This document shows positions 2,486 to 58,293 of a DNA stretch of 64,000 nucleotides, piece by piece. The stretch covers positions 24,112 through 88,111 of the forward strand of contig CAVPKK010000004.1 of NCBI GenBank assembly GCA_963705705.1, read 5' to 3'. Both the position numbers and the translations under genes were made by a program. How positions within the stretch are numbered: position 1 is the stretch's first letter; the number at the start of each line of letters is the position of its first letter. This stretch comes from an uncultured bacterium (lineage in GTDB: Bacteria; Babelota; Babeliae; Babelales; JABCYS01). The notes below the pieces were generated by a model. It made no database searches and had not been told where the DNA came from. It saw only the letters and a program-made list of their open reading frames with translations.

Positions 2486-3403
2486 ATGACGCAATTAATT
2501 CAAATGCGTTCGCGCATTAAGGCTATTAATACGATTGCAAAAATTACACATGCCATGCAATTAATTGCCATGGCAGACCACATCCGGCTACGCGAGCGCA
2601 AATCAAATTTTGAACGTTATCAGCACGCCATTGGTGATCTGCTTCGTCAATTAACTATGATGCGCAAAAAAACTGAGCAAGACGAACATTATCTGGCGAC
2701 GTCTAAAAAGGCGGAAAAAGTTCTTCTAATTATTATTGGTTCACAAAAAGGTTTGTGCGGTTCATTCAACAGCAACGTATTATACGAAGTTGGCAAAATG
2801 CTAAGCACGGAAACTTATGAGCAAGCGGATCTCGTTATCATTGGGAAAAAGGTAAAGGATTACTTCAAGCCGTTTCGCCAGAATCTACCATTCCAAACAA
2901 GAATTGTCGCTGAATACAATGATTTTGTTTGGGCAAACATGGGCACGATCGGCAAATCAATTTTAGCTCAGGCGCTTGACCCAGAACTTGGCTACACCAA
3001 AGTTGTATTATACGGTAATCGGCCAGAAGGTTTTTTTTCGCAGCGAATTATTGCCACGCAACTCTTTCCGATTGTGCCAGTTACTGAGTTAACCACCATG
3101 GTCGCGGAATTATCACCCGATGAATCAGCGCTCGATCTTAGGGCATTAGCGGCTGAACAAAAAGAAGGAGTTATGCAGGATCCAGAAGTTATTTTTGTTG
3201 CCGTAGAACAACTATATCTTTTATCAACCGTTGAATTTGTACTCTTACAATCGCTCTTGGCTGAGCAGGCATCACGATTTGTTTCCATGGATGCCGCGAC
3301 GCGTAATACTAAAAAACTTCGTGAGACCATGCAGATACAATTTAATAAATTGCGTCAGGGTAAAATAACCAAGGAACTCACTGAGCTGGCGAGTAATGTC
3401 TGA
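2486..3403 (+). CDS. atpG: F-type ATP synthase gamma subunit
   Basis: 305 aa. N-terminus MRSRIKAINTIAKITHAMQLIAMA and C-terminus FNKLRQGKITKELTELASN are the conserved gamma-subunit terminal helices. No other atp genes are adjacent. Confidence 0.8.
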   Translation: MTQLIQMRSRIKAINTIAKITHAMQLIAMADHIRLRERKSNFERYQHAIGDLLRQLTMMRKKTEQDEHYLATSKKAEKVLLIIIGSQKGLCGSFNSNVLYEVGKMLSTETYEQADLVIIGKKVKDYFKPFRQNLPFQTRIVAEYNDFVWANMGTIGKSILAQALDPELGYTKVVLYGNRPEGFFSQRIIATQLFPIVPVTELTTMVAELSPDESALDLRALAAEQKEGVMQDPEVIFVAVEQLYLLSTVEFVLLQSLLAEQASRFVSMDAATRNTKKLRETMQIQFNKLRQGKITKELTELASNV

Positions 3404-3454
3404 GATTAGGAATCTATTAAGCTTAGTTATTATCCGACGCGGTCGTAGAAAGCT

Positions 3455-3585
3455 CCGCTCGTCCTGAGCCTGTCGACCCTTCGATACATTTTTGCCTAAG
3501 CAAAAACACTCAGGGCAATCGGGATGGGGTCCCCAAACCTCGGGTTCCCTTACAGGGTGAGTTTGGGGTAAAAGGATACGAGTGG
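3455..3585. repeat. dispersed palindromic repeat, approx 130-bp class (copy 1)
   Basis: Its reverse complement aligns by eye at roughly 85-90 percent identity with 52519..52646. Termini are imperfect inverted repeats (CCGCTCGTCCTGAG / AGGATACGAGTGG). Confidence 0.8.
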
Positions 3586-3671
3586 CACGGCGAACCCAAA
3601 CGTTCAGACCTGCTTCATATTTTTCAAATGTATAATTTATAATTTTGCCAAACCCGCCAAAACCATTTTTT

Positions 3672-3781
3672 GCGCTACGATCCTTCGATCCTTCGAGGGG
3701 CCTCAGGAGTAAACCCTTCGACAGTCGTTGGAGCATCGAAGGCCTTTAGGTCTGAGCTTGTCGAAGACTCAGGATGAGCGC
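3672..3781. repeat. dispersed palindromic repeat, approx 110-bp class
   Basis: Its reverse complement aligns with 13193..13294 (GCGCTCATCCTGAG..TTCGAC..GCTCAG..TCGAAG..TTTACTCCTGAG..TCGAAGGATC..GCGC). Confidence 0.7.
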
Positions 3782-3815
3782 ATCTGGCCCAATCAGATTA
3801 TAAAGCGATCCAATA

Positions 3816-5129
3816 TCACTGCTTTAGTGAGATCCTGGCACCGAGGGCGGCCAGCTTCTGCTCAAATGCTTGGTAACCACGTTTGAAGTGATGCACGCCA
3901 GTCATAATTGTTTTGCCCTCAGCAGCAAGTCCAGCTAAAACAAGCGCGCATGATGCACGAATGTCAGTTGCAATAACGTGTGCGCCATAAAGCTTTTCGA
4001 CACCAATAATTTTGGCGCGACTGCCTTCAATGGTAATGTTTGCACCCATTTTTTGCAGTTCACGCACGTGCAAGAATCTATTCTCGTAAACTGTTTCATG
4101 AACCGTGCTTGTACCTTCCGCTAAACAAAGGGCCGCCATCATTACCGGTTGTAAATCGGTTGGAAACCCAGGATATGGCATGGTGGTAAAAGAAACAGCG
4201 CGTGGTGTTTTGGTTGCTTTGAAAAAGATGCCCTGTTCAGTAGAAATGCGATGCCCCATTTCCTGTAATTTAAGTAGGAAGACATCCAACACCGTTGGAT
4301 CGGCTTGCGGTAAGTGAACTTGTCCGCCGGTAATTGCAGCAGCCAGAAGCAGAGAACCTACTTCAAGACGATCATACATAATGGTGTGTTCGATAGGCTT
4401 TAAATTCATCGTGCCGGTGATGACGATATTCATCGGCGGTTCAATAGTTATTTGCGCACCCATTTTTTTGAGTACCGCAATAAGATCCAATACTTCGGGC
4501 TCTAAAGCCGCATTAATGATGCGCGTAGTTCCTGGCGTTGCAGCGGCTGCCATGAGAAGGTTTTCAGTCGCACCAACGCTTGGATAATCAAGCGTTAATG
4601 TTTTTGCTTCTAAATTTGTTGCATTCGCATAGAGCATTTCACCATCAGCAGTCACCTGCGCTCCCATGCGAATTAAATTTTTAAGATGGATATCAATTGG
4701 TCGTACGCCAATTTGATCGCCGCCTGGCATAGCAATTTCTGCGCGACCGAAGCGAGCAAGAAGTGGGCCGAGCACCAACACCGATGCACGCATTTTTTTC
4801 ATGACTTCTGCGCTAATACGATATTTATTTACCGTAGAAGTATTTACCAGCAATAGATTTTTTTCAGGATAAAAAGAAATTTGTGCGCCCAACTCTTCGA
4901 GTAATTTCATCATTTGGTGCACGTCTTCAGAATCTGGGACATTTGAAAGTTCAGATGTGCCGTCAGTCAGCAAGAGTGAAGTCATAATAACGAGCACCGC
5001 ATTTTTTGCGCCAACGATGTTTGCTTGGCCGGCCAGTGATGGCGATTGTTCAATTGCTATATATGATTCTGATGGTAAAACGTCTTCATGAAACTGATTA
5101 GTACGATGTGATTGTAATTGATCGAGCAT
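3816..5129 (-). CDS. murA: UDP-N-acetylglucosamine 1-carboxyvinyltransferase
   Basis: 437 aa. GAKNAVLVIMTSLLL near the N-terminus and full-length EPSP-synthase/MurA-like repeat pattern. GAAGGAA RBS. Confidence 0.93.
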   Translation of the reverse strand: MLDQLQSHRTNQFHEDVLPSESYIAIEQSPSLAGQANIVGAKNAVLVIMTSLLLTDGTSELSNVPDSEDVHQMMKLLEELGAQISFYPEKNLLLVNTSTVNKYRISAEVMKKMRASVLVLGPLLARFGRAEIAMPGGDQIGVRPIDIHLKNLIRMGAQVTADGEMLYANATNLEAKTLTLDYPSVGATENLLMAAAATPGTTRIINAALEPEVLDLIAVLKKMGAQITIEPPMNIVITGTMNLKPIEHTIMYDRLEVGSLLLAAAITGGQVHLPQADPTVLDVFLLKLQEMGHRISTEQGIFFKATKTPRAVSFTTMPYPGFPTDLQPVMMAALCLAEGTSTVHETVYENRFLHVRELQKMGANITIEGSRAKIIGVEKLYGAHVIATDIRASCALVLAGLAAEGKTIMTGVHHFKRGYQAFEQKLAALGARISLKQ

Positions 5130-5241
5130 TGTTGTTCCTTCTCAAGATGATGGCGCGTAGTCTACAGTGTTGTTGGGCAAAGAAAAACCTGTATGCTAGG
5201 GCTCCGTATCTAACAACACTAATTGTGGCAAGGAGCATCAT

Positions 5242-5868
5242 ATGTCAATCCGTCAGCCAGATTTTAAAGGTCGCCTTGAAGTTGTCTGTGGCTCAATGTT
5301 TTCAGGTAAATCAGAAGAACTTATTCGTCGCGTAAAACGCGCGCAGCTCGCCAAGCGTGAGGTGATTATGTTCAAGCATAGCCTGGATGATCGTATAGCA
5401 AACGCGTACGTTGCGAGCCATGATGGTAATAAATTCGAAGCAATCCCTATTGAACAACCTTCAACCATCTTGGCTGTTGTCGATGAAGACGTAGAAGTTG
5501 TTGGCATCGATGAAACACAATTTTTCCCGCCGGAAATTATCTCCGTAATTTGTGAATTAGTTGCGCAGGGGAAACGGGTCATCGCTGCCGGGCTTGATAC
5601 TGATTTCCGCACAATACCATTCGGCCCGATGCCAGCCCTGCTTGCGTTAGCTGATGAAGCAGTAAAACTCAAAGCAATCTGCATGGTCTGCGGAAATGAA
5701 GCGCAGTTTACGCAACGTATTGTGAATGGAAAACCAGCCGGCTTTTATGATCCATTAATTTTAGTAGGTGCTCAAGAAAGTTACCAAGCTCGTTGCCGCA
5801 GATGCCACGCGATTGATAAAAGTGACGTTGTGGTGGATGCTGCTTCGTATATTGAAATGCAGGCGTAA
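5242..5868 (+). CDS. tdk: thymidine kinase
   Basis: 208 aa. P-loop GSMFSGKSEELIRR, IDETQFF, and C-terminal zinc ribbon CMVCG...CRRCH. AAGGAG RBS. Confidence 0.9.
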   Translation: MSIRQPDFKGRLEVVCGSMFSGKSEELIRRVKRAQLAKREVIMFKHSLDDRIANAYVASHDGNKFEAIPIEQPSTILAVVDEDVEVVGIDETQFFPPEIISVICELVAQGKRVIAAGLDTDFRTIPFGPMPALLALADEAVKLKAICMVCGNEAQFTQRIVNGKPAGFYDPLILVGAQESYQARCRRCHAIDKSDVVVDAASYIEMQA

Positions 5869-5918
5869 TTCAATTGGCTGAACAGAACTAATTAATTTTT
5901 ACAGACAAAAGTCGTAGT

Positions 5919-5955
5919 CGCGCTCTGATTCTTCGATTAACTCAGAATGAGCGCG
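5919..5955. repeat. dispersed palindromic repeat, approx 37-bp class
   Basis: CGCGCTCTGATTCTTCGATTAACTCAGAATGAGCGCG. Near-identical to 57613..57650 and the reverse complement of 33091..33127 and 34753..34791. Confidence 0.7.
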
Positions 5956-6025
5956 GCTAGCGTAAATGTCTAATAGGTATTTTTTCATTGATCATATAAG
6001 TGGTTAATCTAAAAATAACTCAATC

Positions 6026-7387
6026 GTGAAACAAAAAATAAAGTATCAATGCAAAGCCTGCACCTACCAGCCAGTTAAATGGTTAGGATGTTGCCCCGAA
6101 TGCAAACAATGGGAAACCATTGAGGAGATTGCGCCGAGCGTTGTAATCAGCAAATTTGCCGGCGCAGCACAAAGTTCGGGCTACAGGCTCGTACCGTTGA
6201 GCAATATCTCAACCAATTCCCAAGAACGGTTTCGCGCCGGCATACACGAATGGGACCGCGTTCTTGGTGGCGGCATAATGCCAGGCTCACTATTGCTTCT
6301 GGCAGGCGACCCAGGGATCGGGAAATCAACATTACTGCTGCAAATCGCCAATCGATTGGCAGACAATGCAAGCGTCCTATATTTCTCGTCAGAGGAATCA
6401 CTCGAACAAGTAAAGCTTCGGGCCGAGCGCACTGGGTGTAACACCAGCAAAGTGCTATTCACCGATCAAGCCCAGGTGGAATCTATTATCGCCACCATCG
6501 CCCAACACAAACCAGATATTGTTATCATCGATTCAATACAAAATTGTTATTCAACCAATTCAAATGCGGCCACCGGTAGCATTGCGCAATTGCGCGAACG
6601 AGTATTTGCTTTCATGCGAGTGGCCAAAGATGAGCGGGTAGCAATTTTAATGTCGGGCCATATTACCAAAGAAGGTGATATTGCCGGGCCAAAGTTACTT
6701 GAGCATATGGTTGATGGTGTATTTTATTTGCATGGCGAAGATCGCTGGCAAACCAGAATCTTGCGCGCAGTAAAAAATAGATTTGGTGCAATTAATGAAC
6801 TCGGCTTTTTTGAGATGGCGGAACAAGGGATGGTAGAAGTTCCCAATATCAACCAAGAATTGTTAGATGCAATTACAACCGCGCCTGGCTCAGTGCTTAT
6901 TAGCTCATTGGAAGGCTCAAGACCTTTGTTGTTGGAGTTACAGGCATTAACTATCCCAGCCAAATTCGGGATACCGCAGCGGGTTATTACCGGTCTTGAC
7001 CATAAACGCGTGGTACTGATTGCCGCCATCTTGGAAAAATATTTGCATGTAAAATTAAGTGAGCACGATATTTTCTTCAAAGTAAGCGGCTCATTTAAGC
7101 TCAAAGAGTCAGCCGTTGACCTCGGAATTGCTTTGGCATTACTCTCGAGTTATTTCCAGCAGCCGTTGACCGAAAAATCAATTGCGCTTGGCGAACTGAG
7201 CCTCACCGGCCAGATTAAGCCCATTAACCAAATCGGCATGCATTTAAGCGAAGCCAATAATTTCCGCATCAACAAAATATATGTATCACATCAACAAAAA
7301 GTTGAGCAAACCGACGCGCCGGTTGTTCGGCTCAAGAATGTGTACGATCTATTAACGCTATTTAGCGCTCGTACCGAGCAAGAATAA
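6026..7387 (+). CDS. radA: DNA repair protein RadA/Sms
   Basis: 453 aa, GTG start. N-terminal zinc finger YQCKACTY...CPECKQW, Walker A GDPGIGKSTLLLQ, KNRFG motif, and a C-terminal Lon-like domain. Confidence 0.92.
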   Translation: MKQKIKYQCKACTYQPVKWLGCCPECKQWETIEEIAPSVVISKFAGAAQSSGYRLVPLSNISTNSQERFRAGIHEWDRVLGGGIMPGSLLLLAGDPGIGKSTLLLQIANRLADNASVLYFSSEESLEQVKLRAERTGCNTSKVLFTDQAQVESIIATIAQHKPDIVIIDSIQNCYSTNSNAATGSIAQLRERVFAFMRVAKDERVAILMSGHITKEGDIAGPKLLEHMVDGVFYLHGEDRWQTRILRAVKNRFGAINELGFFEMAEQGMVEVPNINQELLDAITTAPGSVLISSLEGSRPLLLELQALTIPAKFGIPQRVITGLDHKRVVLIAAILEKYLHVKLSEHDIFFKVSGSFKLKESAVDLGIALALLSSYFQQPLTEKSIALGELSLTGQIKPINQIGMHLSEANNFRINKIYVSHQQKVEQTDAPVVRLKNVYDLLTLFSARTEQE

Positions 7388-11561: not shown

Positions 11562-12959
11562 ATGGTTATTTCGTTTTTCCAGATGATCACCCGTCCCATG
11601 TTTGGCTCGTTCGAACGCGAAGAGTACAAAAAGTTTTTACGGATGGGATTAATCTTTACCACCCTCATTGGTTCATACTGGACCATGCGCCCGCTCAAAG
11701 ATGCAATTTTTTCCGAGCTCGTTGGTGCTGCAGCAATTCCCTGGGCTAAAACGGCATCTCTCATAATCCTCATCCCAACCGTAATGTTTTATACCCGGTT
11801 ATTGGATAAATATTCCCGCGAAAAAATGTTCTATATCCTCTCAGCATTTTACGGGATCACCCTGCTACTTTTTGCACTCGTATTTATTTCACCAATCGGT
11901 CTTGGCAGTGCTGAAGAAATAGCAGCACGTTCAGGCGCTGTAGCTATTCTTGATGATGCACTTGGCTATTTGTGGTATGTCTACGTAGAAAGCTTTGGTT
12001 CTCTGATCATTGCGCTTTTCTGGGCAATCGCATCTGACACAACAATGCCAGAATCAGCTAAAAAAGGGTTTCCTTTTGTAGTCTGCTTAGGCCAAATCGG
12101 CGGTATTGTTGGACCACGTTATCTTTCTCGCCTACCTCGTTATCTAAACTTTGAGACTAGTGCATTAACAGTTGCCATTGTTGGCTGCTTTGTACTTTTG
12201 GTAAGCGCATTCTTTACCTATTTCCTTAAAGCAACTCCTGCGCATCTACTTACCTCTTTCCATGGTAAAAACGAAGCTACAGAGAAAAAAGAACAAGAAC
12301 CTGGCTTCCTTGAAGGTCTCAAGTTAGTGCTCGCACACAACTATTTGATCAGCATGTTTGCTGTTTACTTCTTCTACGAGTTCATCGTTACCATTTTTGA
12401 CTTGCACTTTAAATTTGCAGCTGCATCACAATACAAAGGTCTTGCACTTGCAGAGTATCTTTCACACTACGGCTCAATGGTAAACACCGTAGCACTCCTT
12501 TGCTTATTGCTTGGTGTAAGTAACATTACTCGTTATCTTGGCATCACAATCGCATTGGTCATTCTGCCTATCATCATCTTCGGTGCACTGATTGGCTTTA
12601 ACATTATCAGCCACTTGGAATTCTTATTCTGGCTCATGGTAGGCTCTAAGGCTATCAACTATGCACTTAATGGTCCGACCATGAAGCAACTATACATTCC
12701 AACTACGCATGATGTTCGCTTCAAGTCATCTGCTTGGATCGAAACATTCGGCTCTCGCGCTTCTAAAGAAGGCGGATCACTATTCAACATGCTGCTTGGT
12801 CCATTGACCACCAAGTATGGCGTAGTTGCCGGCCGTGCGATGCACGCGATGTGGGCATCATATGTAGGCTACGCAATGGTTGCCGTTTGGGTATTCATTG
12901 CCGCATTCTTGGGCAAAACTTACAACCGCGCTATCGAAGAGAAACGCGTAGTCTGCTAA
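11562..12959 (+). CDS. nucleotide transporter, Tlc/NTT (ATP:ADP antiporter) family, paralog 1
   Basis: 465 aa, polytopic. YWTMRPLKDAIF and WYVYVESFGSLIIALFWAIASDTTMPESAKKGFPF match the Tlc/NTT signature (E.WGS...LFW.FAN.IT..EAKRFYP). The start could instead be the ATG at 11583. Confidence 0.8.
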   Translation: MVISFFQMITRPMFGSFEREEYKKFLRMGLIFTTLIGSYWTMRPLKDAIFSELVGAAAIPWAKTASLIILIPTVMFYTRLLDKYSREKMFYILSAFYGITLLLFALVFISPIGLGSAEEIAARSGAVAILDDALGYLWYVYVESFGSLIIALFWAIASDTTMPESAKKGFPFVVCLGQIGGIVGPRYLSRLPRYLNFETSALTVAIVGCFVLLVSAFFTYFLKATPAHLLTSFHGKNEATEKKEQEPGFLEGLKLVLAHNYLISMFAVYFFYEFIVTIFDLHFKFAAASQYKGLALAEYLSHYGSMVNTVALLCLLLGVSNITRYLGITIALVILPIIIFGALIGFNIISHLEFLFWLMVGSKAINYALNGPTMKQLYIPTTHDVRFKSSAWIETFGSRASKEGGSLFNMLLGPLTTKYGVVAGRAMHAMWASYVGYAMVAVWVFIAAFLGKTYNRAIEEKRVVC

Positions 12960-13050: not shown

Positions 13051-13192
13051 ATCAAATTTTTTGTTTCACAGTTATTTTTATATATTCATCTCATTATCTT
13101 CACGTGAATGATAACGCGCTCATCCTGCATGTCCGCCAAAGCTCATGGATGTTGTAGAAATTATTATTAGATGCAAGAGGATCGCGCTCATT

Positions 13193-13294
13193 CTGAGGCT
13201 TCGACGAGGCTCAGCCTGTAGTCCTTCGAATAAATTTCCTCGAGTCGAAGAGTTTACTCCTGAGTTTATCGAAGGATCGAAGAATCAAGCGCGC
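13193..13294. repeat. dispersed palindromic repeat, approx 110-bp class
   Basis: CGCGCTCATTCTGAGG...TCGAAGGATCGAAGAATCAAGCGCGC. Homologous to the reverse complement of 3672..3781. Partial extra copies at about 13115-13135 and 13311-13338. Confidence 0.7.
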
Positions 13295-13402
13295 AAAACA
13301 ACGGCATCGGCGGAAGTTGATCGAAGGATCAGAGCGCGAAGCTGGCCCTATCAAATCAGCGACTAAGAAAAAAATAAATAATCATACCTTAAAGGATAAA
13401 TC

Positions 13403-13825
13403 ATGATTTGGATTTTATATGGCTTACTTTCCGCCTTCGCCGCCGCGCTCGTAGCCCTATTCGGCAAATTGGGATTAAAAGGATTTGATTCAGTACTTGC
13501 GACCACCCTTCGTTCGGGCATTCAGCTACTCAGCATGCTTTTTTTTAGCGGTATTCTGCATCGGTTTGATCTTACAAAAATTATGGCTCTATCTGGCCGG
13601 GATTGGTTCTGGATCGCAGCCTCAGGTTTTGCAGGGGCATTATCCTGGCTGTTTTATTTTAGTGGTCTTGCAATCGGGCCGATGAATAAGATGGTGGCAC
13701 TTGATCGTTTGAGTTTGGTATTCGCCATTATCTTAAGCGCAGTTGTACTTGGTGAGAAAATCACCGCATGGACAATAATAGGAACTGCATTAATGGTCGT
13801 CGGTTCGTTCTTAATTGTTAAATAA
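13403..13825 (+). CDS. small DMT-superfamily (EamA-like) membrane transporter
   Basis: 140 aa with 4-5 TM helices. FGKLGLKGFDSVLATTLRS and the C-terminal VLGEKITAWTIIGTALMVVG are typical of single EamA-domain proteins. Confidence 0.6.
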   Translation: MIWILYGLLSAFAAALVALFGKLGLKGFDSVLATTLRSGIQLLSMLFFSGILHRFDLTKIMALSGRDWFWIAASGFAGALSWLFYFSGLAIGPMNKMVALDRLSLVFAIILSAVVLGEKITAWTIIGTALMVVGSFLIVK

Positions 13826-13829
13826 AAAA

Positions 13830-13867
13830 GCATGGTCTTTGAACCAAATTTGATTCAAAGACCATGC
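13830..13867. terminator. bidirectional hairpin terminator between convergent genes
   Basis: Perfect 14-bp stem GCATGGTCTTTGAA / TTCAAAGACCATGC, flanked by an A-run upstream (a T-run on the opposite strand). Confidence 0.65.
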
Positions 13868-13891
13868 TTACTATTAAAAAACTAATTAGTC

Positions 13892-15103
13892 CTATATTGC
13901 AGGGGCACTTGTATTCGTAGTATCAGCTATTGGGGCGAAGATCGGTGGCTTAGTTCCACCATAATTGTTTAATAAACCATACGGTGAACCATTATTAAAG
14001 GCAATGTTATTGGCAAAAAGCGCAGTTGCAGCAGGCGAAATATAAGCAGCATAGTTTTCGAATCCATAGCCAGCGTTATAATATGCATTACAATTTTGTA
14101 TCACAGCATTCGCATCTGGAGCGTCTGCTGTACCAATCAGGAAACCACTATTTGCGTTGAAGATTGCAGAACAGTTATTTATAAAACTCGATGAGCCTTC
14201 AGCACACACAAAACCATAAGAATTATTATTTGCTGAACAATGATCAATATAAACACCCGGAGCATCAATAAATATTCCAGCGTTCGCACAGTTTGTTACA
14301 ACAACATCTCGAATTGATATTTGTGCCGTTGACCCTTCGATAAGAATGCCAAATGCCGGGGCATTTTGAACAATACCATTCTTTACTGTCACATCATTCG
14401 CACTAAATACAACGATTCCATCGTTACCGCCGGCCACGGTCAGAGTGTTACCATTCAGATTAAACAAAACTTGGTTGCTTGAAATAGTAATTGGAGCCGT
14501 AATAGTTGCATTTCCACACAATATATAGGTACCCGGTACAGTAATCAGGTATCCACCTGCAACATCGGCCGGCGTAAGATAGAAAATATCGCAGCTTGGA
14601 ACGCAAGAAGAACAAGCTAGAAGATTTCCTAGCACAGAGAACGTGCCATTAAAGTCTTGAACTAGCTCAGTTTTGATATCTATAAGTTCACTGAATGTGC
14701 CGTTGAAGTCATCAATAATTAGTGCTTCGAGGTCTGCTAAAACTGAGAATGTGCCATTAAAATCTGCAACGAGTGTTGCCTCAATAGCAGCAAGCATCGT
14801 GTAAGCACCACTAAGATCACAAGATCCGGAAGCACATGGGCAAGCTAAAAGGGCCTCAAGCATTGAGAATGTGCCATTGAAATCATTAACAACAAGAACT
14901 TCAAGACTATCCAAATCAGATTGGATTGATTCTAGCATTGAGAAAGTACCATTGAAATCCGCTTCGAGTTCTGCACAACAATTAGGACGCAGACAACTTC
15001 TTTCAGCCATATCCCCGCTCATATCCATTGCGGATACATATTCCGGTGCGGCCAGCGCGCCAATACACAGAGCGGCCATTAGGGTTTGTTTAAACGACAT
15101 CAT
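13892..15103 (-). CDS. secreted DFNGTFS-repeat protein with C-terminal right-handed parallel beta-helix domain (paralog A)
   Basis: The start is moved to ATGATG at 15103 (AGGAG RBS; matches the paralog N-terminus MMSFKQTL). Signal peptide, 5 canonical DFNGTFS repeats, Cys clusters (ACPCASGSCD), then PbH1-like repeats (NCANAGIFID, HCSANNNSYGF, NNCSAIFNANSGF, NCNAYYNAGYGF). Confidence 0.75.
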   Translation of the reverse strand: MMSFKQTLMAALCIGALAAPEYVSAMDMSGDMAERSCLRPNCCAELEADFNGTFSMLESIQSDLDSLEVLVVNDFNGTFSMLEALLACPCASGSCDLSGAYTMLAAIEATLVADFNGTFSVLADLEALIIDDFNGTFSELIDIKTELVQDFNGTFSVLGNLLACSSCVPSCDIFYLTPADVAGGYLITVPGTYILCGNATITAPITISSNQVLFNLNGNTLTVAGGNDGIVVFSANDVTVKNGIVQNAPAFGILIEGSTAQISIRDVVVTNCANAGIFIDAPGVYIDHCSANNNSYGFVCAEGSSSFINNCSAIFNANSGFLIGTADAPDANAVIQNCNAYYNAGYGFENYAAYISPAATALFANNIAFNNGSPYGLLNNYGGTKPPIFAPIADTTNTSAPAI

Positions 15104-15310
15104 TAGAAACTCCTTTTTCCCGATTGATACAAACAACAAGCGCTATCCCGAGTATCAATCACTTCTCGAGATGGCACATACCTTTCAGCGATACAAGTTA
15201 AGATTAACTATGGCTCAGAATGAATGGCAAGCGATGATATCAAAATGAGACGATACCGCTTTACACAAAAAGCTTTTTGGCGACACTCAGTCTAATCTTG
15301 TTTTGAGACA

Positions 15311-15355
15311 AAAAACGAGAGGGACAGTGGCGTTAACCAAGTCCCTCTGTTTTTA
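15311..15355 (-). terminator. intrinsic terminator of paralog B
   Basis: GAGAGGGAC ... GTCCCTCT stem. On the minus strand it is followed by a T-run (complement of AAAAAC at 15311-15316). Confidence 0.6.
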
Positions 15356-15372
15356 AGAATATGAATTTAGGA

Positions 15373-17397
15373 TTAAGGCAATGTTGGTACTGCCACATTA
15401 GTGAATGGGTTGACGGTGGCAGTGGTCAACAGCGTAGTGTATGAAGTCTCCATAAAGGTACCGGTTAGATTAGGTATAGAGAAATTTGCGACATCGTTAT
15501 TTTGAGCCCAGTTATTGTGATATCTGTTCAAGCCAGCAGTCAATTCAGCTCCTCCAGTTGAATCATCAAATATGCCATAACCCTTGTTATTATCGAACTG
15601 TGAATTGCTTACAGCAAGATTAATCGTGCTTCCATCAACGTTCAAGCCATAAGCATTTGTACCAACCGAAAATTCCTGAGCATTATTTGCAATACAAGCA
15701 TCAACATATCCGAGTTGCAAGTTATATACCCTAAAACCAGCTGCACCAATTGCATTTGGTCCCGTAGTAATTGTGCTTCCTATAATGGTTTGTACGGTGC
15801 AATGATCAAATACAATATTAAATTGAGTATCTTCTATTTGATCATTTCTGGTCGTAGAAAAACCTGATGCTTCGCCGCCACTAAAATTTTCAATGACGTC
15901 AGCTTGAGAATCTCGACAGACAATGCTGGAGCAAAAGTTAATAAAATGGCCGCCATCTGCAAAACCATTTCCTACAGATAAATTAGCGATCGCATGCGCG
16001 TTAAAGCGTTCCACTATCCCGCCTAGAATACTGGACCAGCTGAATCCTGCAGCGCCAGCAGAAGGCAAAGCGCCTCCAGAGACTATTGATGATGCCGAGC
16101 AATCGGTCATGATAATATTTTTAGAATCCGAAGCCTCGAAACCAGCGGCCATACCAATTTTTGCTATAAGATTATTGGCAACACAAGAACGTAGTATTAC
16201 ATCAAAAGTACCAATAGTAGTAAAACCAGCAATAATTGCTGCGAGCCCAGAGCCACCATCTGTATGCGCATTTGATTGGCAATTCAGGTATGTAATAGTC
16301 TCAGAATTATTGTCACAGAAGCCAGCAAGCCGTGATGCATTTGGTGCGATTATATTGCTGCTCTGACAGTTTTCATACAATACATCTGTTGAATTCTGTA
16401 TATAAGCACCTGCAGCAGCAACCGCAAATCCATAGTCGGAAGTTACCGCAACTGTTTGTCCAAATGAAAACTGACAATTGGTGACAAGCAAATCGCGGAC
16501 ACTGTCTCCAACTAAAGCTATTGAATCTGATGCGGCTACTGTTGCATCAAGTGAAAACCCTGTTTGGAGAATGTTTACATGATCAATGGCTATTGAAAAT
16601 GAGGAACGGTTCAATTGAATGCCGAACTGAGAGAAGTTTCTGATATACCCGTTTACAATCGCGATGTTACTGTTGTTGCTGGTCAATGAAATAGCAGTAC
16701 ATAAAGCGGTATTGTTAACCTGCTGAATTGTGTGCTCGCTCAGATCTAAGTAAACATTACGCGCAGCAATAGTAATAGCCGTCGTCCCAGGAGCAATAGG
16801 AGCAAATGCAATATCCTCCGCAAGACAATAAACTCCCGGTGCACTAATAACATACCCGGCCGGACCAACATCTGCTTGAGTAATAGATATTGGTGTACCG
16901 CAAGGTGCCAATGCCCCAATATCGATAAGAATCTCTTCCAGCATGCTAAAGGTGCCATTAAAGTCTTGAACTAGCTCAGTTTTGATATCTATAAGTTCAC
17001 TGAATGTGCCGTTGAAGTCATCAATAATTAGTGCTTCAAGGTCTGCTAAGACTGAGAATGTGCCATTAAAGTCTGCAACGAGTGTTGTCTCAATCGCGAC
17101 AAGCATTGTAAAAGCACCATTAAGATCACATGACCCGGCAGCGCACGGGCAAGCTAAGAGAGCCTCAAGCATTGAGAATGTGCCATTAAAGTCAGCAACT
17201 AGCTCAGCTTTAATATCAATCAATTCGCTGAATGTACCATTGAAATCTGCTTCGAGTTCTGCACAGCAATTCATCTTAGGGCGCAAACAGCTTCTTGTTA
17301 TTGCATCCTCGCTCATATCCATAGCGGATACATATTCCGGGACGAACAGCGCGCCAACACACAGAGCGGTTAATAGGGTTTGTTTAAACGACATCAT
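15373..17397 (-). CDS. secreted DFNGTFS-repeat protein with large C-terminal parallel beta-helix domain (paralog B)
   Basis: 674 aa, GGAG RBS. Signal peptide MMSFKQTLLTALCVGALFVPEYVSA, 5 DFNGTFS repeats, then a long region of beta-helix-type repeats rich in N/G/S/A (NCQSS, NCQSNAH, DCSASS, FDHCTVQ). Confidence 0.8.
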   Translation of the reverse strand: MMSFKQTLLTALCVGALFVPEYVSAMDMSEDAITRSCLRPKMNCCAELEADFNGTFSELIDIKAELVADFNGTFSMLEALLACPCAAGSCDLNGAFTMLVAIETTLVADFNGTFSVLADLEALIIDDFNGTFSELIDIKTELVQDFNGTFSMLEEILIDIGALAPCGTPISITQADVGPAGYVISAPGVYCLAEDIAFAPIAPGTTAITIAARNVYLDLSEHTIQQVNNTALCTAISLTSNNSNIAIVNGYIRNFSQFGIQLNRSSFSIAIDHVNILQTGFSLDATVAASDSIALVGDSVRDLLVTNCQFSFGQTVAVTSDYGFAVAAAGAYIQNSTDVLYENCQSSNIIAPNASRLAGFCDNNSETITYLNCQSNAHTDGGSGLAAIIAGFTTIGTFDVILRSCVANNLIAKIGMAAGFEASDSKNIIMTDCSASSIVSGGALPSAGAAGFSWSSILGGIVERFNAHAIANLSVGNGFADGGHFINFCSSIVCRDSQADVIENFSGGEASGFSTTRNDQIEDTQFNIVFDHCTVQTIIGSTITTGPNAIGAAGFRVYNLQLGYVDACIANNAQEFSVGTNAYGLNVDGSTINLAVSNSQFDNNKGYGIFDDSTGGAELTAGLNRYHNNWAQNNDVANFSIPNLTGTFMETSYTTLLTTATVNPFTNVAVPTLP

Positions 17398-22208: not shown

Positions 22209-23612
22209 ATGACTACTGCACAAAAAGTTATTCGCTACTTTTATCCTGACTTAAAACAGGAAGAGATAAGAAAATTTGGCATATTATCGGTTATTTTTTT
22301 TCTTATCATCGGAACTTATTGGTTACTTCGTCTGCTTAAGTACACCATTTTCCTTAAGATCGCTTTTCCGGAATGCCATGGTTGGGCATCTGAACAGGGC
22401 CGTTTGTTTCAGCCAACGGCAAAGAAATTATCACCCTGGATAGTGTTGATCATGGTGCTCATCTACTCCAAATTGGTAGATAAGGTAAAAAAGCACCAGC
22501 TCTTTTATATAATCTGTACTTTCTATGCCATATTGTTTTGCGGATTCGCTGGCATCCTTTTGCTAAAAGATCTCTACGGAACCCAAATGATAGGCAAATT
22601 AGCGTTGGCCACACTTGGCTGGGTAAGCTATTTTGCCATTGAAAGCTTTGGTTCATTAGTTGTTTCTTTATTTTGGGCATTCACTAATAGCACTACCGAT
22701 TCCGATTCTGCCAAACGCGGGTTTCCATTCATTGTGGCTATGGCACAACTAGCAGCCATTTTTGGATCTGGCACATTATTCTTTTCTGGTTCTCTTGGAA
22801 CACTGTGGCCTATTTTGCTATTGGCCTCTATCTTGGTTTTGGCCGTTATTCCTTGCGTGCGTTATTTCGAGCAACACGTTCCCGCATCAATGATGGTTGG
22901 TAACGTTGCTGCGGCGGCAACTGAGAAAAGGAAGGAAGGCTTCATTGAAGGATTTGTTTCAGGAATTGTATTACTATTTTCTCGCTCCTATTTACTTGGC
23001 GTGCTTGTAATTTCAACCTTCTACGAAGCGGTATCACAAATTGTGGAATATCAGATGCAAGCATATGCCTGCATGGCACCAGCGTATAAAAGCGAAATCG
23101 CTTTTGCCCAGTTTATGAGCCTGTATGGCATCGCGACCAATGTTGTTTCATTCTTGGTTGCATTGCTTGGCACCGGCTACATTCTTAAACGATTTGGTGC
23201 CCGCATTAGTTTGTTAGTTTACCCTATCACCTTTGGCCTCACCCTGTTAGGGCTATATACCTATTTCAAATTCCACCCTTCCCCGGCGTTACTATTATGG
23301 GCAACCTTTGTTGCAGTGGTAATCTTAAAGGGAGTTGGTTATGCGGTGAATTCGCCAACCAAGGAAATGATGTATATCCCGACCAGCAAGGATGCCAAAT
23401 TCAAATCTAAAGGTTGGATCGATACCTTCGGTAGCCGCTTTTCTAAATCCGGCGGCGCCCAAGTTAATGACATGTTTAAAACCAACCTTCCCGATCTTAT
23501 GTTTTATGGTTCTATGATCGGCTTTGGCGTGGTCGGCATCTGGATTGTTGCGGCCATCTATGTTGGCACCAGGAACAAACAACTCGTTGAATCTCGCCAA
23601 ATCATTGAATAG
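22209..23612 (+). CDS. nucleotide transporter, Tlc/NTT family, paralog 2
   Basis: 467 aa, AAAGGA RBS. YWLLRLLKYTIF and YFAIESFGSLVVSLFWAFTNSTTDSDSAKRGFPF are collinear with 11562..12959. Confidence 0.8.
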   Translation: MTTAQKVIRYFYPDLKQEEIRKFGILSVIFFLIIGTYWLLRLLKYTIFLKIAFPECHGWASEQGRLFQPTAKKLSPWIVLIMVLIYSKLVDKVKKHQLFYIICTFYAILFCGFAGILLLKDLYGTQMIGKLALATLGWVSYFAIESFGSLVVSLFWAFTNSTTDSDSAKRGFPFIVAMAQLAAIFGSGTLFFSGSLGTLWPILLLASILVLAVIPCVRYFEQHVPASMMVGNVAAAATEKRKEGFIEGFVSGIVLLFSRSYLLGVLVISTFYEAVSQIVEYQMQAYACMAPAYKSEIAFAQFMSLYGIATNVVSFLVALLGTGYILKRFGARISLLVYPITFGLTLLGLYTYFKFHPSPALLLWATFVAVVILKGVGYAVNSPTKEMMYIPTSKDAKFKSKGWIDTFGSRFSKSGGAQVNDMFKTNLPDLMFYGSMIGFGVVGIWIVAAIYVGTRNKQLVESRQIIE

Positions 23613-41962: not shown

Positions 41963-42293
41963 TAAAAAATAATTATTTCTCAGCAGTGCCATAAAAAAAG
42001 GCCCTCAGAAATCGAATTCAATTGATTTTCGCAAATAAGGTAATAGCTTTATTCATGGAAATACCTATTTTTCAACCAATTCGATGGTAGATATATTGCT
42101 GCTGAATCGCTCTTTTTTTTAATTCTTCGCTTTATTAAAAATTGCTCTGCCTGTAACATTTTGGACAGCAATAGGCGCATCCATTGGACAAAGAGAGCCA
42201 ATTTCATGTATTTTTAACTAAAATTACATAGGCGAGCCCAAAATTCTGCAAAATCGCTGGACTCTTTTTTTGAATGAACAGCCAAGAAATTTA

Positions 42294-42872
42294 ATGATAC
42301 ATATGAGCCAAAGAACAATCCTCTCCCCATCAATTCCCATCGAAGATTTCCGCAGCTTCTATTGGCTCAAAAAAGAGCTTCAGAATTTTTGTAGCAAGCA
42401 GGGATTATCAACGTCTGGCAGTAAGCACGAACTACAGAACGGAATTGAGCAATTTTTGAATAGCGGCACGATAGAAAAATCGAACCATAAAGTGCGTCAA
42501 TCTATATCTTCGGAAGAAGAGTTGTCACTTGATACTACTGTACCTCAAGGTTTTACTTGCACACGCAAAGCTCGCGACTTTTTAATTGAACATGCCGGCA
42601 GAAAATTTAAATATACTGTAGCCCTGCAACGCTATATTAAAACAAACCCAGGAATAACATTTCGGCAGCTCATTGATGAATGGAAGCGCCAAGCTAATCT
42701 AAAAAAAGCGGGATTAAAAACTAAAATAGGCAGCCAGTTCGAATATAATCAGTTCACCCGCGATTTTTTTGCCGATCACCGCAATAAAGGCAAATCTCGG
42801 GAAGAATATATTGCGGCATGGTATGCTGTGCGCAGCTCCCGCGGGCCACGAAAACATCTGCCAAAAGATTGA
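42294..42872 (+). CDS. SAP-domain-containing protein
   Basis: WLKKELQNFCSKQGLSTSGSKHELQNGIEQFL matches the SAP helix-extended-helix motif. The start is uncertain (TTG 42270, ATG 42294 or 42303). Confidence 0.55.
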   Translation: MIHMSQRTILSPSIPIEDFRSFYWLKKELQNFCSKQGLSTSGSKHELQNGIEQFLNSGTIEKSNHKVRQSISSEEELSLDTTVPQGFTCTRKARDFLIEHAGRKFKYTVALQRYIKTNPGITFRQLIDEWKRQANLKKAGLKTKIGSQFEYNQFTRDFFADHRNKGKSREEYIAAWYAVRSSRGPRKHLPKD

Positions 42873-52430: not shown

Positions 52431-53522
52431 ATGAAGCGAATGCAACTCATAAAACGCCTCTCGCCAGCAATTCCAATATTGCTGTCTTTAACAGTCACAA
52501 CTTCAGGTAGTCACTCAGCCGCTCGTATCCTTTTACCCCAAACTCACCCTGAAAGGGAACCCGAGTTTCGGGGACCCCAGTCCGATCGCCCTGAGTATTT
52601 TGCGCAGCAAAATGTATCGAAGGGTCGACAGGCACAGGACGAGCGGACATCTCTATCACGCGAACATAAAGCAACGGATGCCATCCAATTAAAACAACAA
52701 TCAGCTAATGAAAAAGCTGCCGTTTTTGATATTGGTGGCGTTCTTGTAGAAGTTAATAATAACCAGCAGATTCTTAGTAAGATTGGTTGGTGGAATATCC
52801 TAAATTACACCCTTCATTTTAATAACCCGTTTAAGCTTCGTGATCATCTACTCAAAATTGCATTCGATATCCTGTACAAAATGCGTGGCGAAAAACCTGA
52901 TCCTGCGTCATTCCCTCCCGGGCATCCAATGGCCGCGGGCTTTCCAATGCCCAGCATTATGGTTGATTGGCAGCTCGGGAAAATAAGTTCAGCTGCGGTT
53001 TTAGCAGAGGCGAAAACTTTCATCAAACGGTTGGCAAAACAAGGTTACTTTAAAAATTCACTCGACGAAGAAATGACACACATTTATTTTGGGTGCATTT
53101 TTGATGCGAGCCAACGAGTTCCATTCACCGAGCCAATTAAAGAAGGCTGGGATTTAGTAAAGAAATACAAAGATGATGGCTATAGGATTTACCTGCTCTC
53201 CAACATGGACCCTGATACCATGCCACTCACCAAGGCCAAGCTTCCAAAGCTTTTTGCGATGGTTGATGGCATCGTCTACTCGAGTGCAGAACATATCATG
53301 AAACCGCAGCCAGAATTCTTTAAGATATTATTGGATAGGTACCATCTACAACCTGAGCAATGTATCTTCTTTGATGATCAGAAGGAGAATATTGCTGCGG
53401 CACAAAAATTGGGCTTTGAAACCTTCCTATGCTCACGTGAAAGTATGAAGACTTTGCTTACGCAGCTTGAAGAAAAGCCAGATCAAGCATCGACCGTTGT
53501 CGTTGCTGCAACTTATGTATAA
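52431..53522 (+). CDS. HAD-superfamily hydrolase with signal peptide and repeat-encoded N-terminal linker
   Basis: 363 aa. Motif I AAVFDIGGVL, motif III/IV region LLSNMD...FFDDQKENIAAAQKLGF. There is no in-frame start codon between the repeat (52519-52646) and motif I. Confidence 0.7.
   Translation: MKRMQLIKRLSPAIPILLSLTVTTSGSHSAARILLPQTHPEREPEFRGPQSDRPEYFAQQNVSKGRQAQDERTSLSREHKATDAIQLKQQSANEKAAVFDIGGVLVEVNNNQQILSKIGWWNILNYTLHFNNPFKLRDHLLKIAFDILYKMRGEKPDPASFPPGHPMAAGFPMPSIMVDWQLGKISSAAVLAEAKTFIKRLAKQGYFKNSLDEEMTHIYFGCIFDASQRVPFTEPIKEGWDLVKKYKDDGYRIYLLSNMDPDTMPLTKAKLPKLFAMVDGIVYSSAEHIMKPQPEFFKILLDRYHLQPEQCIFFDDQKENIAAAQKLGFETFLCSRESMKTLLTQLEEKPDQASTVVVAATYV
52519..52646. repeat. dispersed palindromic repeat, approx 130-bp class (copy 2), inside a CDS
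   Basis: Aligns with the reverse complement of 3455..3585. Translated as ARILLPQTHPEREPEFRGPQSDRPEYFAQQNVSKGRQAQDER. Confidence 0.8.
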
Positions 53523-56483: not shown

Positions 56484-57452
56484 TTATTTCCCTTTCTCCG
56501 CGAGAGCTTTTTGCAAAGCTCTATCTGCATAGCTCATACCCAGAACTGCTAATACAACGCGCAGGCCACGGAATTCAAGGCCATCCCGCAATGACTTGAG
56601 GCCTTGATTCTTAACCAATGCACATAAGGTTTGCCAGGTTGATGGGAATTCGCGCAGTAAATCATCTTGCATGCATTTCCTGAGTCGGGCAGCGGGATGT
56701 GTCATCACCGCTGCAGCAACACCTGCCGTTAATGTCGCCGCAAGTTTACGCGCCTGCTCATTATCAAGATACGGTTTATAAACTCTCTCGACCAATGGCG
56801 GAAGAGCTTTAAACCCAGCTACGAAGCCGGCATCTCGGAATGCGACTGGCCAGAATCCTCGGTATAAACCACGGAGACCGTTGGTTGCATACACCTCATT
56901 GAATGCTTGGCGAGTCGACAACAATACATTGCGATTTTCATTCGCATACTGTTGACGCTGCGCCAATAGTTCCTGCGGGCAGCTTACTAATGCGCCAAGT
57001 CCTCCTGCGGCAGTTGCTGTTGCCAATCGTTGGCCATCAGTTAATGGTTGATGGTTCACAGCCATAACTGCCTGGTTCAAGCCTTCCGCACAGCCATTCT
57101 GCACAGCGGTGATTGGGGCCATACCTGCAACCATGGTTCCGAAACTCGAATACCAAACGCGCGGACTAAGTGATAAGTTGCGCAAGCGCTGCGACCAGCT
57201 CTTGGCGACCTGACCAGCCGTTGGCTGCATGGCATTGGAGAAATAGAAGCACGGTGTACCCGTGATTGGCTCTAGACTTCCAAGCGCAGCGCCAACGACG
57301 GTATTTCTCGCTAATGTTGCAAGCGCCGATTTCGGCGGCGTGCTTTTGTTTTCTTCTGCATTATCCATGGCAAACATGGAGACGCAGAATGTTACGCTGA
57401 CCATTAATAGGTTCAGCACCTTATTGATGTAATGCATCGCATTACCTTTCAT
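56484..57452 (-). CDS. mitochondrial carrier family (MCF)-like protein with degenerate signatures
   Basis: 322 aa. Three repeats of about 95 aa. Each has a G/A-rich helix followed by a P-x-x-x-x-x-x-x-Q-like motif (TPCFYFSNAMQ, CPQELLAQRQQ, HPAARLRKCMQ) and a G-x-x-x-Y/L-R-G-type second motif (GLRGLYRGFWPVAFRDAGF, GLKSLRDGLEFRGLRV). Confidence 0.5.
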   Translation of the reverse strand: MKGNAMHYINKVLNLLMVSVTFCVSMFAMDNAEENKSTPPKSALATLARNTVVGAALGSLEPITGTPCFYFSNAMQPTAGQVAKSWSQRLRNLSLSPRVWYSSFGTMVAGMAPITAVQNGCAEGLNQAVMAVNHQPLTDGQRLATATAAGGLGALVSCPQELLAQRQQYANENRNVLLSTRQAFNEVYATNGLRGLYRGFWPVAFRDAGFVAGFKALPPLVERVYKPYLDNEQARKLAATLTAGVAAAVMTHPAARLRKCMQDDLLREFPSTWQTLCALVKNQGLKSLRDGLEFRGLRVVLAVLGMSYADRALQKALAEKGK

Positions 57453-57612: not shown

Positions 57613-57650
57613 TCGCGCTTTGATTCTTCGATAAACTCAGAATGAGCGCG
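57613..57650. repeat. dispersed palindromic repeat, approx 37-bp class
   Basis: TCGCGCTTTGATTCTTCGATAAACTCAGAATGAGCGCG. An adjacent fragment at 57670-57715 (GTGTTTTGCGCAGCAAAACGTATCAAGG) matches the centre of the 130-bp class. Confidence 0.75.
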
Positions 57651-58044
57651 TTCAAGTCAATCCGGACTAGCAGCGTCGTCGGAAGTGTTTTGCGCAGCAA
57701 AACGTATCAAGGAATATGAGCAACAATAGTCAGTCAACGACCGATCTAATTTTTGAAATCGAAAATGTTGGGTTAAAAAAGAATGTATTGGGCGCTTACG
57801 CCACAATAAATCGAATGAGGTTTGAAATCAGCAGAATGCTGAGGAAGAAAGAGAAAGAAGAAATAGTAGAAAAATGAGAATATGAATGTGACGGCCGACT
57901 GGTCTGTCGCGGAGTCGTCATGATCGTTCCTTTTGGTTAAAATGATACATATAATACCCAATACCCTACCAGCTCTTCTTATAAGATCAACCGGTAGGTT
58001 TCGGTTGCATCCATCAAATCTCGAAAATAAAAGAGTTAAGCCCT

Positions 58045-58293
58045 ATGGACACATTAAAGCCATTCTCAGAAAAAGCGCGAAACCTCAAACTCGGTATGTA
58101 TGAGCATTATAGTGGCAAACGGTACACCGTCATTTCTGTTGCACGGCATAGTGAATCATTGGAAGAGCACGTAGTATACCAAGCACATTATGGCGATCGC
58201 GATGTCTGGGTTCGACCATTCAGCATGTTTTGTGAGCAGGTAGAAATAAACAAATTAATGGTTCCTCGGTTCCGCCACATTGAAGACGTTTAG
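58045..58293 (+). CDS. DUF1653 family protein
   Basis: 82 aa. YEHYSGKRYTVISVARHSESLEEHVVYQ...WVRPFSMF. Confidence 0.7.
   Translation: MDTLKPFSEKARNLKLGMYEHYSGKRYTVISVARHSESLEEHVVYQAHYGDRDVWVRPFSMFCEQVEINKLMVPRFRHIEDV

Follow-up and report, generated by a model that had tools for sequence, protein, structure and literature searches.

A family of small palindromic repeats is dispersed through the window, which is the whole 64-kb stretch of DNA that we analysed. The repeats are best explained (probability about 0.7) as non-autonomous palindromic DNA of the REP, BIME and RPE kind, copied to new genome sites and mobilised in trans. The REP/RPE-like nature suggested in the original prediction was borne out. 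Palindromes of this kind are a fairly ordinary feature; what is new is their occurrence in a lineage for which we found no earlier report.

Three nested length classes form one repeat family

We observed eight matches to the 5' terminus GCGCTCATCCTGAG in the 64-kb window, allowing up to two mismatches, where 0.42 were expected (0 of 100 dinucleotide-preserving shuffles gave eight). All three length classes aligned significantly in blastn searches against the window. The four short copies were 92-95% identical (E 1e-9 to 1e-10), the 110-nt pair at 3672-3781 and 13184-13296 was 75% identical over 114 columns (E 1e-14), and the 130-140-nt pair at 3446-3588 and 52516-52655 was 87% identical over 141 columns (E 4e-38). 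A repeat finder grouped the short copies, and likewise the 130-nt pair, into families of direct and inverted repeats. Closed hairpin units of the form stem-TGAG-N3-7-CGAA-stem occurred eight times in the window, compared to 0.115 expected; none of the 200 first-order Markov simulations behind this expectation gave more than one. The G+C content was 49-56% in the repeats and 43% across the window. All copy counts refer to the 64-kb window.

These data agree with the predicted dispersed palindromic family, its nested length classes and its occurrence in both orientations. Every copy listed beforehand was recovered by the repeat finder and blastn, and the coordinates proved good to about 10 nt. 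The second 110-nt-class copy was present, with a true start at 13184 rather than 13193 (9 nt late); both 130-nt-class copies were also present, each running a few nucleotides past the limits given for it. The two ORFs that had been called spurious products of the repeats exist as well (3272..3736 on the minus strand and 13145..13366 on the plus strand).

Most copies lie shortly after stop codons

The main placement of the copies was about 35-160 nt after stop codons. The first 130-nt-class copy (3446..3588, plus strand) lay 43 nt past the atpG stop, between the convergent genes atpG and murA, and the first 110-nt-class copy (3672..3781, minus strand) lay 35 nt past the murA stop. Short copies were found between tdk and radA (5918..5955, minus strand, stem ATTC/GAAT) and 36 nt past the stop of an ABC ATPase gene at 32300-33055 (33091..33128, plus strand, stem ATCC/GGAT). 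Copies started 35-51 nt past the stops of atpG, murA, tdk and the ABC ATPase gene. One cluster, starting 157 nt past the stop of an NTT/TLC transporter gene, held a 5'-terminus fragment of the outer element (13116..13129, plus strand), the second 110-nt-class copy (13184..13296, plus strand) and a 3'-terminus fragment, TGATCGAAGGATCAGAGCGCG (13315..13339, plus strand; blastn E 1e-4), the partner of the 5' fragment. Another short copy (57613..57650, minus strand, stem ATTC/GAAT) occupied a long spacer upstream of a mitochondrial-carrier-like gene, between its start at 57452 and the next genes. A lone fragment of the inner module of the 130-nt class, TACRTTTTGCTGCGCAAAAYAC, was found at 57684..57712 (minus strand; E 4e-4). 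The predicted intergenic placement held for most copies but not for those at 34753-34791 and 52516-52655, which lie in frame within protein-coding genes.

The copies had also been proposed to act as terminators, and this role found no support. No T run followed the hairpin at any copy, all eight outer hairpins being followed by A instead, and a terminator scan of 3380-6040 gave no terminator-like site at the copies there. The base 3' of every outer hairpin was A, usually the start of an A-rich run (3671, 5917, 13297, 13340, 33129, 34792 and 57612 in the window, and position 9495 of locus L129 from a related organism). This A may belong to the element as an unpaired tail, or it may reflect a target preference.

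As predicted, the window contained no recognisable transposase: Pfam and NCBIfam searches of its approximately 57 ORFs found neither a transposase nor an insertion sequence (IS). No direct repeat or target-site duplication was visible in the flanks of the eight outer copies. Rfam gave no match at the gathering score across the whole window and, in 3400-3820, none at E<=10.

Named homologues of the ABC ATPase come from Candidatus Babeliales MAGs. The window encodes genes related to parasitism or resembling those of eukaryotes, namely two TLC/NTT nucleotide transporters, two RING-finger proteins, a SAP-domain protein and a mitochondrial-carrier-family protein; such genes lie at 11562-12959, 22209-23612, 27942-30017, 42270-42872 and 56484-57452. 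This gene content fits an intracellular bacterium, probably of the Babeliales (Dependentiae/TM6).

Hairpins are nested in loops and stems change in a compensatory manner

The short element reads CGCGCTC-ATYC-TGAGTTWATCGAA-GRAT-CARAGCGCG and folds into an outer GCGC clamp with an inner stem of 4-5 bp around a loop of 11-13 nt. Its basic module has a 5' tag of the GCTC type, a stem that opens with A-T, the loop TGAG-N-TCGAA and the GCGC clamp outside. The longer classes are short-type hairpins that carry 70-100 nt of extra hairpin units in the loop, in either orientation. In the 110-nt class, the outer arms are those of the short class and about 70 nt sit in the loop, namely one reversed and one forward unit together with an extra CCTTCGA/TCGAAGG hairpin. 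Because this forward unit abuts the outer 3' arm, TCGAAGGATCGAAGG appears in duplicate. The first copy of this class has the outer hairpin GCGCTCATCC...GGATCGTAGCGC and an inner reversed unit with the pan-bacterial loop TGAGCTTGTCGAA. The 130-nt class is a CCGCTCGTCCT...AGGATACGAGCGG hairpin that holds a reversed unit, with a 24-nt hairpin in that unit's own loop, and then a further hairpin. Its first copy has the outer hairpin CCGCTCGTCCT...AGGATACGAGTGG and, inside, the reversed unit and two more hairpins. At 13116-13339, two outer termini seem to bracket about 190 nt, with a complete 110-nt-class copy among them. The nested loops, the mixed units and the lone inner-module fragment indicate an architecture that is modular and mosaic, as in BIMEs.

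Long-class DNA folded more stably than its shuffles (z −2.7 to −3.4), and the short copies were modestly more stable (z −0.8 to −2.9). Stems varied between copies without loss of pairing. One stem position was C-G in four window copies, T-A in three and A-T in the copy of the related organism, and its pairing was never broken; the corresponding stem variants were ATCC/GGAT and ATTC/GAAT in the window and ATAC/GTAT in the relative. Similarly, the inner reversed unit of the 110-nt class was closed by GTC/GAC in one copy and by GGC/GCC in the other. These compensatory changes show that the hairpin is conserved, beyond the sequence alone. Template switching within a palindrome can also produce such changes without selection.

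Two copies are in-frame insertions in protein-coding genes

The fourth short copy (34753..34791, plus strand) lies in frame within the gene of an ABC-2 type transporter ATPase (33964..34950, plus strand) and translates as RAHPELIEGSDRA. The protein has 328 aa, compared to 312 aa in most homologues. We aligned it with ten homologues (72-78% identity) and observed an 11-aa (33-nt) insert that coincided exactly with the repeat and was absent from all ten, with the domains on either side of it aligned. A DNA alignment with two relatives had the same gap of about 30 nt at the repeat. Of the three forward frames of the short element, a single one has no stop codon, and this gene uses it.

The second 130-nt-class copy (52516..52655, minus strand) lies in frame within the gene of a HAD-family hydrolase (52431..53522, plus strand), for which the public annotation gives 360 aa from the ATG at 52440. 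It sits behind a signal-peptide-like N-terminus and ahead of HAD motif I (VFDIGGVL), in the orientation opposite to the gene. No in-frame ATG, GTG or TTG occurs between the copy and motif I, and the annotated 360-aa product includes the repeat-derived segment. Two homologues (65% and 51% identity) keep the hydrophobic N-terminal segment and lack the 42-47 aa of the insert. A HMMER search of 1.84 billion cluster representatives with the 130-nt-class peptide recovered only the window's own spurious ORF 3272..3736.

Judging from these alignments, both intragenic copies are insertion events of the Rickettsia palindromic element kind, with boundaries that are not base-precise given that the nearest homologues of the two genes are only 65-76% identical. 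They were tolerated thanks to a reading frame without stop codons.

An independent assembly and Babeliales relatives

Three Logan contigs, from an independent short-read assembly of run ERR10755948, were 100% identical to the window. Four of their ends fell in or beside repeats (3752 and 5947 for contig L001, 13145 for L146 and 33116 for L147). Such ends are suggestive, though not proof, of the effect that multi-copy repeats have on de Bruijn assembly.

A related organism (L129; 47% G+C) shares an ABC ATPase at 76% identity and partial synteny with the window. It carries a 75-nt version of the 110-nt-class element at a different site, upstream of its ABC gene. Five other Babeliales loci (13-21 kb, 35-41% G+C) contained no copy. 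The presence of the repeats in the window and in this relative, together with their absence from the five other loci, looks like a lineage-specific expansion. The window's own sub-type was absent from the JGI metagenome contigs searched. A degenerate pattern specific to the window had only 16 metagenome matches, which resemble chance hits in high-G+C DNA. The relative also encodes a PDDEXK_2 nuclease (Rpn/transposase_31-like; L129:13202-14131) about 4 kb from its element copy, and no counterpart of this nuclease was found in the window.

The core hairpin unit occurs across bacterial phyla

The core unit combines a GYTC tag and 4-5 covarying base pairs with the 13-nt loop TGAGCYTGTCGAA; its 5' flank is GCTC or GTTC. 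The inner units of the 110-nt class in the window (3747 and 13219) bear exactly this cross-phylum loop. A scan of one genome per species with the pattern GCTCATYCTGAG-N3-8-TCGAAGRATC returned at least 111 stretches (L002-L112). The matches listed lay in Dehalococcoidia and other Chloroflexota, Novosphingobium, Erythrobacter and relatives, Hydrogenophaga, Acidovorax, Luteimonas, Bacteroidota, Planctomycetia, Thermodesulfobacteriota and Chitinispirillaceae. Besides Chloroflexota, Bacteroidota and Thermodesulfobacteriota, they represent the Planctomycetota, the Fibrobacterota and the Alpha-, Beta- and Gammaproteobacteria, with Sphingomonadales and Burkholderiales among the orders. Among these listed matches, the units were multi-copy and often arranged in tandem or nested in each other's loops.

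Stem pairing was also observed at sites that the scan pattern had not selected. Across 826 kb of the matches listed, 61 of 204 TGAG-N-CGAA sites outside the pattern were closed by at least four contiguous Watson-Crick pairs, with 11 different stems around the loop TGAGCYTGTCGAA. In an alignment of 150 distinct sites, chosen irrespective of pairing, 75% of cells paired compared to 61% in shuffles, and the covariation score was 0.327 compared to 0.129 (0 of 500 shuffles as high). When the partner was shifted by 1-3 columns, the score was at most 0.14. Pair types were varied; one position had 48 UA, 29 CG and 23 GC.

No Rfam family matched the units in five loci of other phyla, and searching the literature for its DNA string or its peptides turned up no relevant publication. 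Among 2.9 million viral contigs, the unit occurred in only 11 stretches, a rarity which argues that it is not phage-borne. A crude survey of gene orientation counted 13 sense and 19 antisense units in tandem gene pairs, along with units in convergent and divergent spacers; this lack of strand bias favours a DNA-level element. The asymmetry between G.T and A.C pairs (5 vs 0) was considered as a sign of an RNA-level element and set aside, the counts being too few and not independent. A hammerhead-like reading of CUGA...GAA was rejected by eye, since the UGA of CUGAUGA is missing from the core. When 4208 ORFs of the 111 listed loci were clustered all against all, only ordinary enzymes and antisense ORFs emerged, and no transposase.

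In five Sphingomonadales genera (L049, L074, L075, L084 and L112), the unit loci had several orthologous genes in common. The spacer that holds the unit is perhaps orthologous, and its immediate flanks differ in each genome. This pattern could reflect long persistence or a hot spot.

Comparison with known repeat systems

Rickettsia palindromic elements (RPEs) are palindromic repeats found both between genes and in frame within genes, where otherwise conserved proteins gain a peptide (PMC10969869). The window repeats are alike in behaviour: both are palindromes of about 100-150 nt in an obligate intracellular bacterium, both occupy intergenic and in-frame intragenic sites, and here the insertions add 11 aa to the ABC ATPase and 42-47 aa to the HAD hydrolase. 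They differ from RPEs in their host, a member of the Dependentiae rather than the Alphaproteobacteria, in having a 38-nt class and in comprising only two intragenic cases. In-frame insertion of palindromes into proteins, best known from Rickettsia, is now extended to the candidate phylum Dependentiae, which suggests that reduced intracellular genomes repeatedly tolerate or recruit such elements. The consequences reach MAG annotation, where these repeats caused at least two spurious ORFs, the extra length of two proteins and several breaks in the assembly.

Di Nocera et al. (2013; PMC3733652) class RPE-4 and RPE-6 as tagged REPs and describe a CGTC-tagged REP superfamily with a CGTC, TGTC or CCTC tag, a stem of 8-9 bp that opens with two A-T pairs and a loop of 4-5 nt. 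Its members have an unpaired 5' tag ending in TC, a stem that starts with A-T, a loop and a short tail, as do the present repeats. They are often arranged head-to-head, occur in several phyla, are occasionally intragenic and have no dedicated transposase known, features which the present repeats also have (PMC3733652). The tag is GCTC in the window and GCTC or GTTC in other phyla, which is near those three tags and identical to none. The stem likewise starts with AT, but has 4-5 Watson-Crick pairs around a loop of 11-13 nt, unlike the published dimensions. The present repeats resemble the CGTC-tagged superfamily in layout and differ from it in stem and loop dimensions, and they may yet prove identical with one of its four families.

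Repeats of the E. coli REP/BIME type consist of palindromic units in alternating orientation, in a mosaic with other motifs (PMC3184786). Those in the window are likewise imperfect palindromes, rich in G+C, that lie behind genes or between convergent ones, and 3446-3781 and 13116-13339 have units on both strands together with extra hairpins. They differ in lacking a GTAG tag, in the absence of a RAYT from the window and in nesting units in each other's loops rather than only setting them side by side. The four 38-nt copies, three of them extragenic, agree with the size and placement of GTAG REPs (20-40 bp, multi-copy, mostly extragenic). Their termini do not, being CGCGCTC and GAGCGCG, with a single internal GTAG in the copy at 13184 only. 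None of the approximately 57 window ORFs encodes a RAYT (Y1 HUH transposase).

The Coxiella burnetii element QMITE2 is similar in its intracellular host, in its long form with truncated REP-like forms and in lying mostly in 3' regions or intergenic DNA; its relatives are reported in Bradyrhizobium and Rhodobacter. QMITE2 has a GTAG REP targeted by IS1111 and full-length copies with direct repeats of 7-11 nt, neither of which is found here. Similarity to CbsR16 is a further mark of QMITE2. A Coxiella origin of the window and identity with QMITE2, considered at first on the strength of G+C content and motif, were rejected: the named homologues point to Candidatus Babeliales, and the window elements lack the GTAG core and the direct repeats.

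Mobilisation and alternative explanations

No transposase was found in the window or near the 111 listed loci, and we therefore infer the mobilisation step entirely. Copies would be moved in trans by an enzyme encoded elsewhere, the likeliest candidate being a recogniser of single-stranded hairpins such as a HUH/Y1 RAYT-like transposase. New insertions would preferentially enter the loop of a unit already in place, and compensatory stem changes would arise because the hairpin must be recognised. Consequences for the host are probably secondary: hairpins downstream of genes may shield the 3' ends of mRNAs, in line with the mRNA-stabilising role named in the original prediction, and those within genes probably add surface peptides.

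Structures selected by the host, for mRNA 3'-end stabilisation, for pausing or termination, or for gyrase or IHF binding as proposed for E. coli REP/BIME, would also account for five copies that begin 35-157 nt past a stop codon, for stem pairing kept through compensatory changes, for a loop sequence conserved across phyla and for long-class folds that beat their shuffles (z −2.7 to −3.4). Such selection is nonetheless a rather unlikely origin for the family. Two copies lie in coding sequences and one in a spacer between divergent genes, the copies have no uniform orientation to transcription either in the window or in other phyla, none has a T tract behind it, copies occur at only about 8 of about 60 genes and close relatives lack copies at the same sites. 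Host selection would moreover be compatible with mobility, as it concerns events after insertion. The termini GCGCTC...GAGCGC are inverted repeats, and the size classes recall full-length and truncated copies, as in Coxiella QMITE2. Both features fit classical MITEs, that is, deletion derivatives of one IS whose terminal inverted repeats let its DDE transposase move them, with duplication of the target site. The original prediction had named MITEs among the options, and we now regard them as very unlikely: all eight outer copies lack flanking direct repeats, the 38-nt short class is essentially one hairpin, the longer classes grow by insertion into the loop and not by retaining more of an IS, and no IS is present in the window. 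Although the window is a metagenome-assembled contig, mis-assembly of the bin or chance low-complexity similarity is effectively refuted already by three independent ERR10755948 contigs, 100% identical across flanks and partial copies, by E-values down to 4e-38, by the unique flanks of each copy and by the open reading frames that two copies keep.

Trans-mobilised palindromic DNA may also be read more widely. The window repeats could, quite tentatively, be the Dependentiae branch of one bacteria-wide hairpin element that inserts into its own loop and depends on one recogniser; we found no earlier description of its sequence. Such an element would be defined by the GYTC tag, 4-5 freely covarying pairs and the nearly invariant 13-nt loop TGAGCYTGTCGAA, in which tandem G.A pairs could form. 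Its conservation from Chloroflexota through Proteobacteria to an amoeba-associated parasite would then reflect one widespread enzyme or cellular machine, and the CGTC-type REPs, which have no known transposase, could share that system. The core hairpin, with its common loop, covarying stems and lack of an Rfam family, is a handle on what moves the REP classes that have no RAYT.

Other features beside the repeats

Directly downstream of the repeat cluster at 13116-13339, we observed an ORF of 140 aa (13403-13825) with a single EamA domain. EamA transporters usually have two EamA domains, and this ORF may encode a transporter of half the usual size or be a gene that was truncated. Between its stop at 13825 and the stop of a convergent beta-helix gene at 13892 lies a near-perfect palindrome that is unrelated to the repeat family (13828-13869; 21-nt arms, no spacer, 95% complementarity). 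It may be a bidirectional terminator-like hairpin. Two adjacent minus-strand genes follow at 13892-17397, encoding proteins of 415 aa (right-handed beta-helix) and 674 aa. They have segments of 299 and 110 nt in common at 85-89% identity, about 2.3 kb apart; the genes look like tandem paralogues, and their products are perhaps surface or effector proteins.

The long spacer beside the short copy at 57613 contains an ORF of 82 aa (58045-58293; YEHYSGKRYTVISVARHSE...VVYQAHYGDRDVWVRP), which we take to resemble small DUF1653-type proteins. It is probably a real gene, which shortens the apparent 950-bp spacer.
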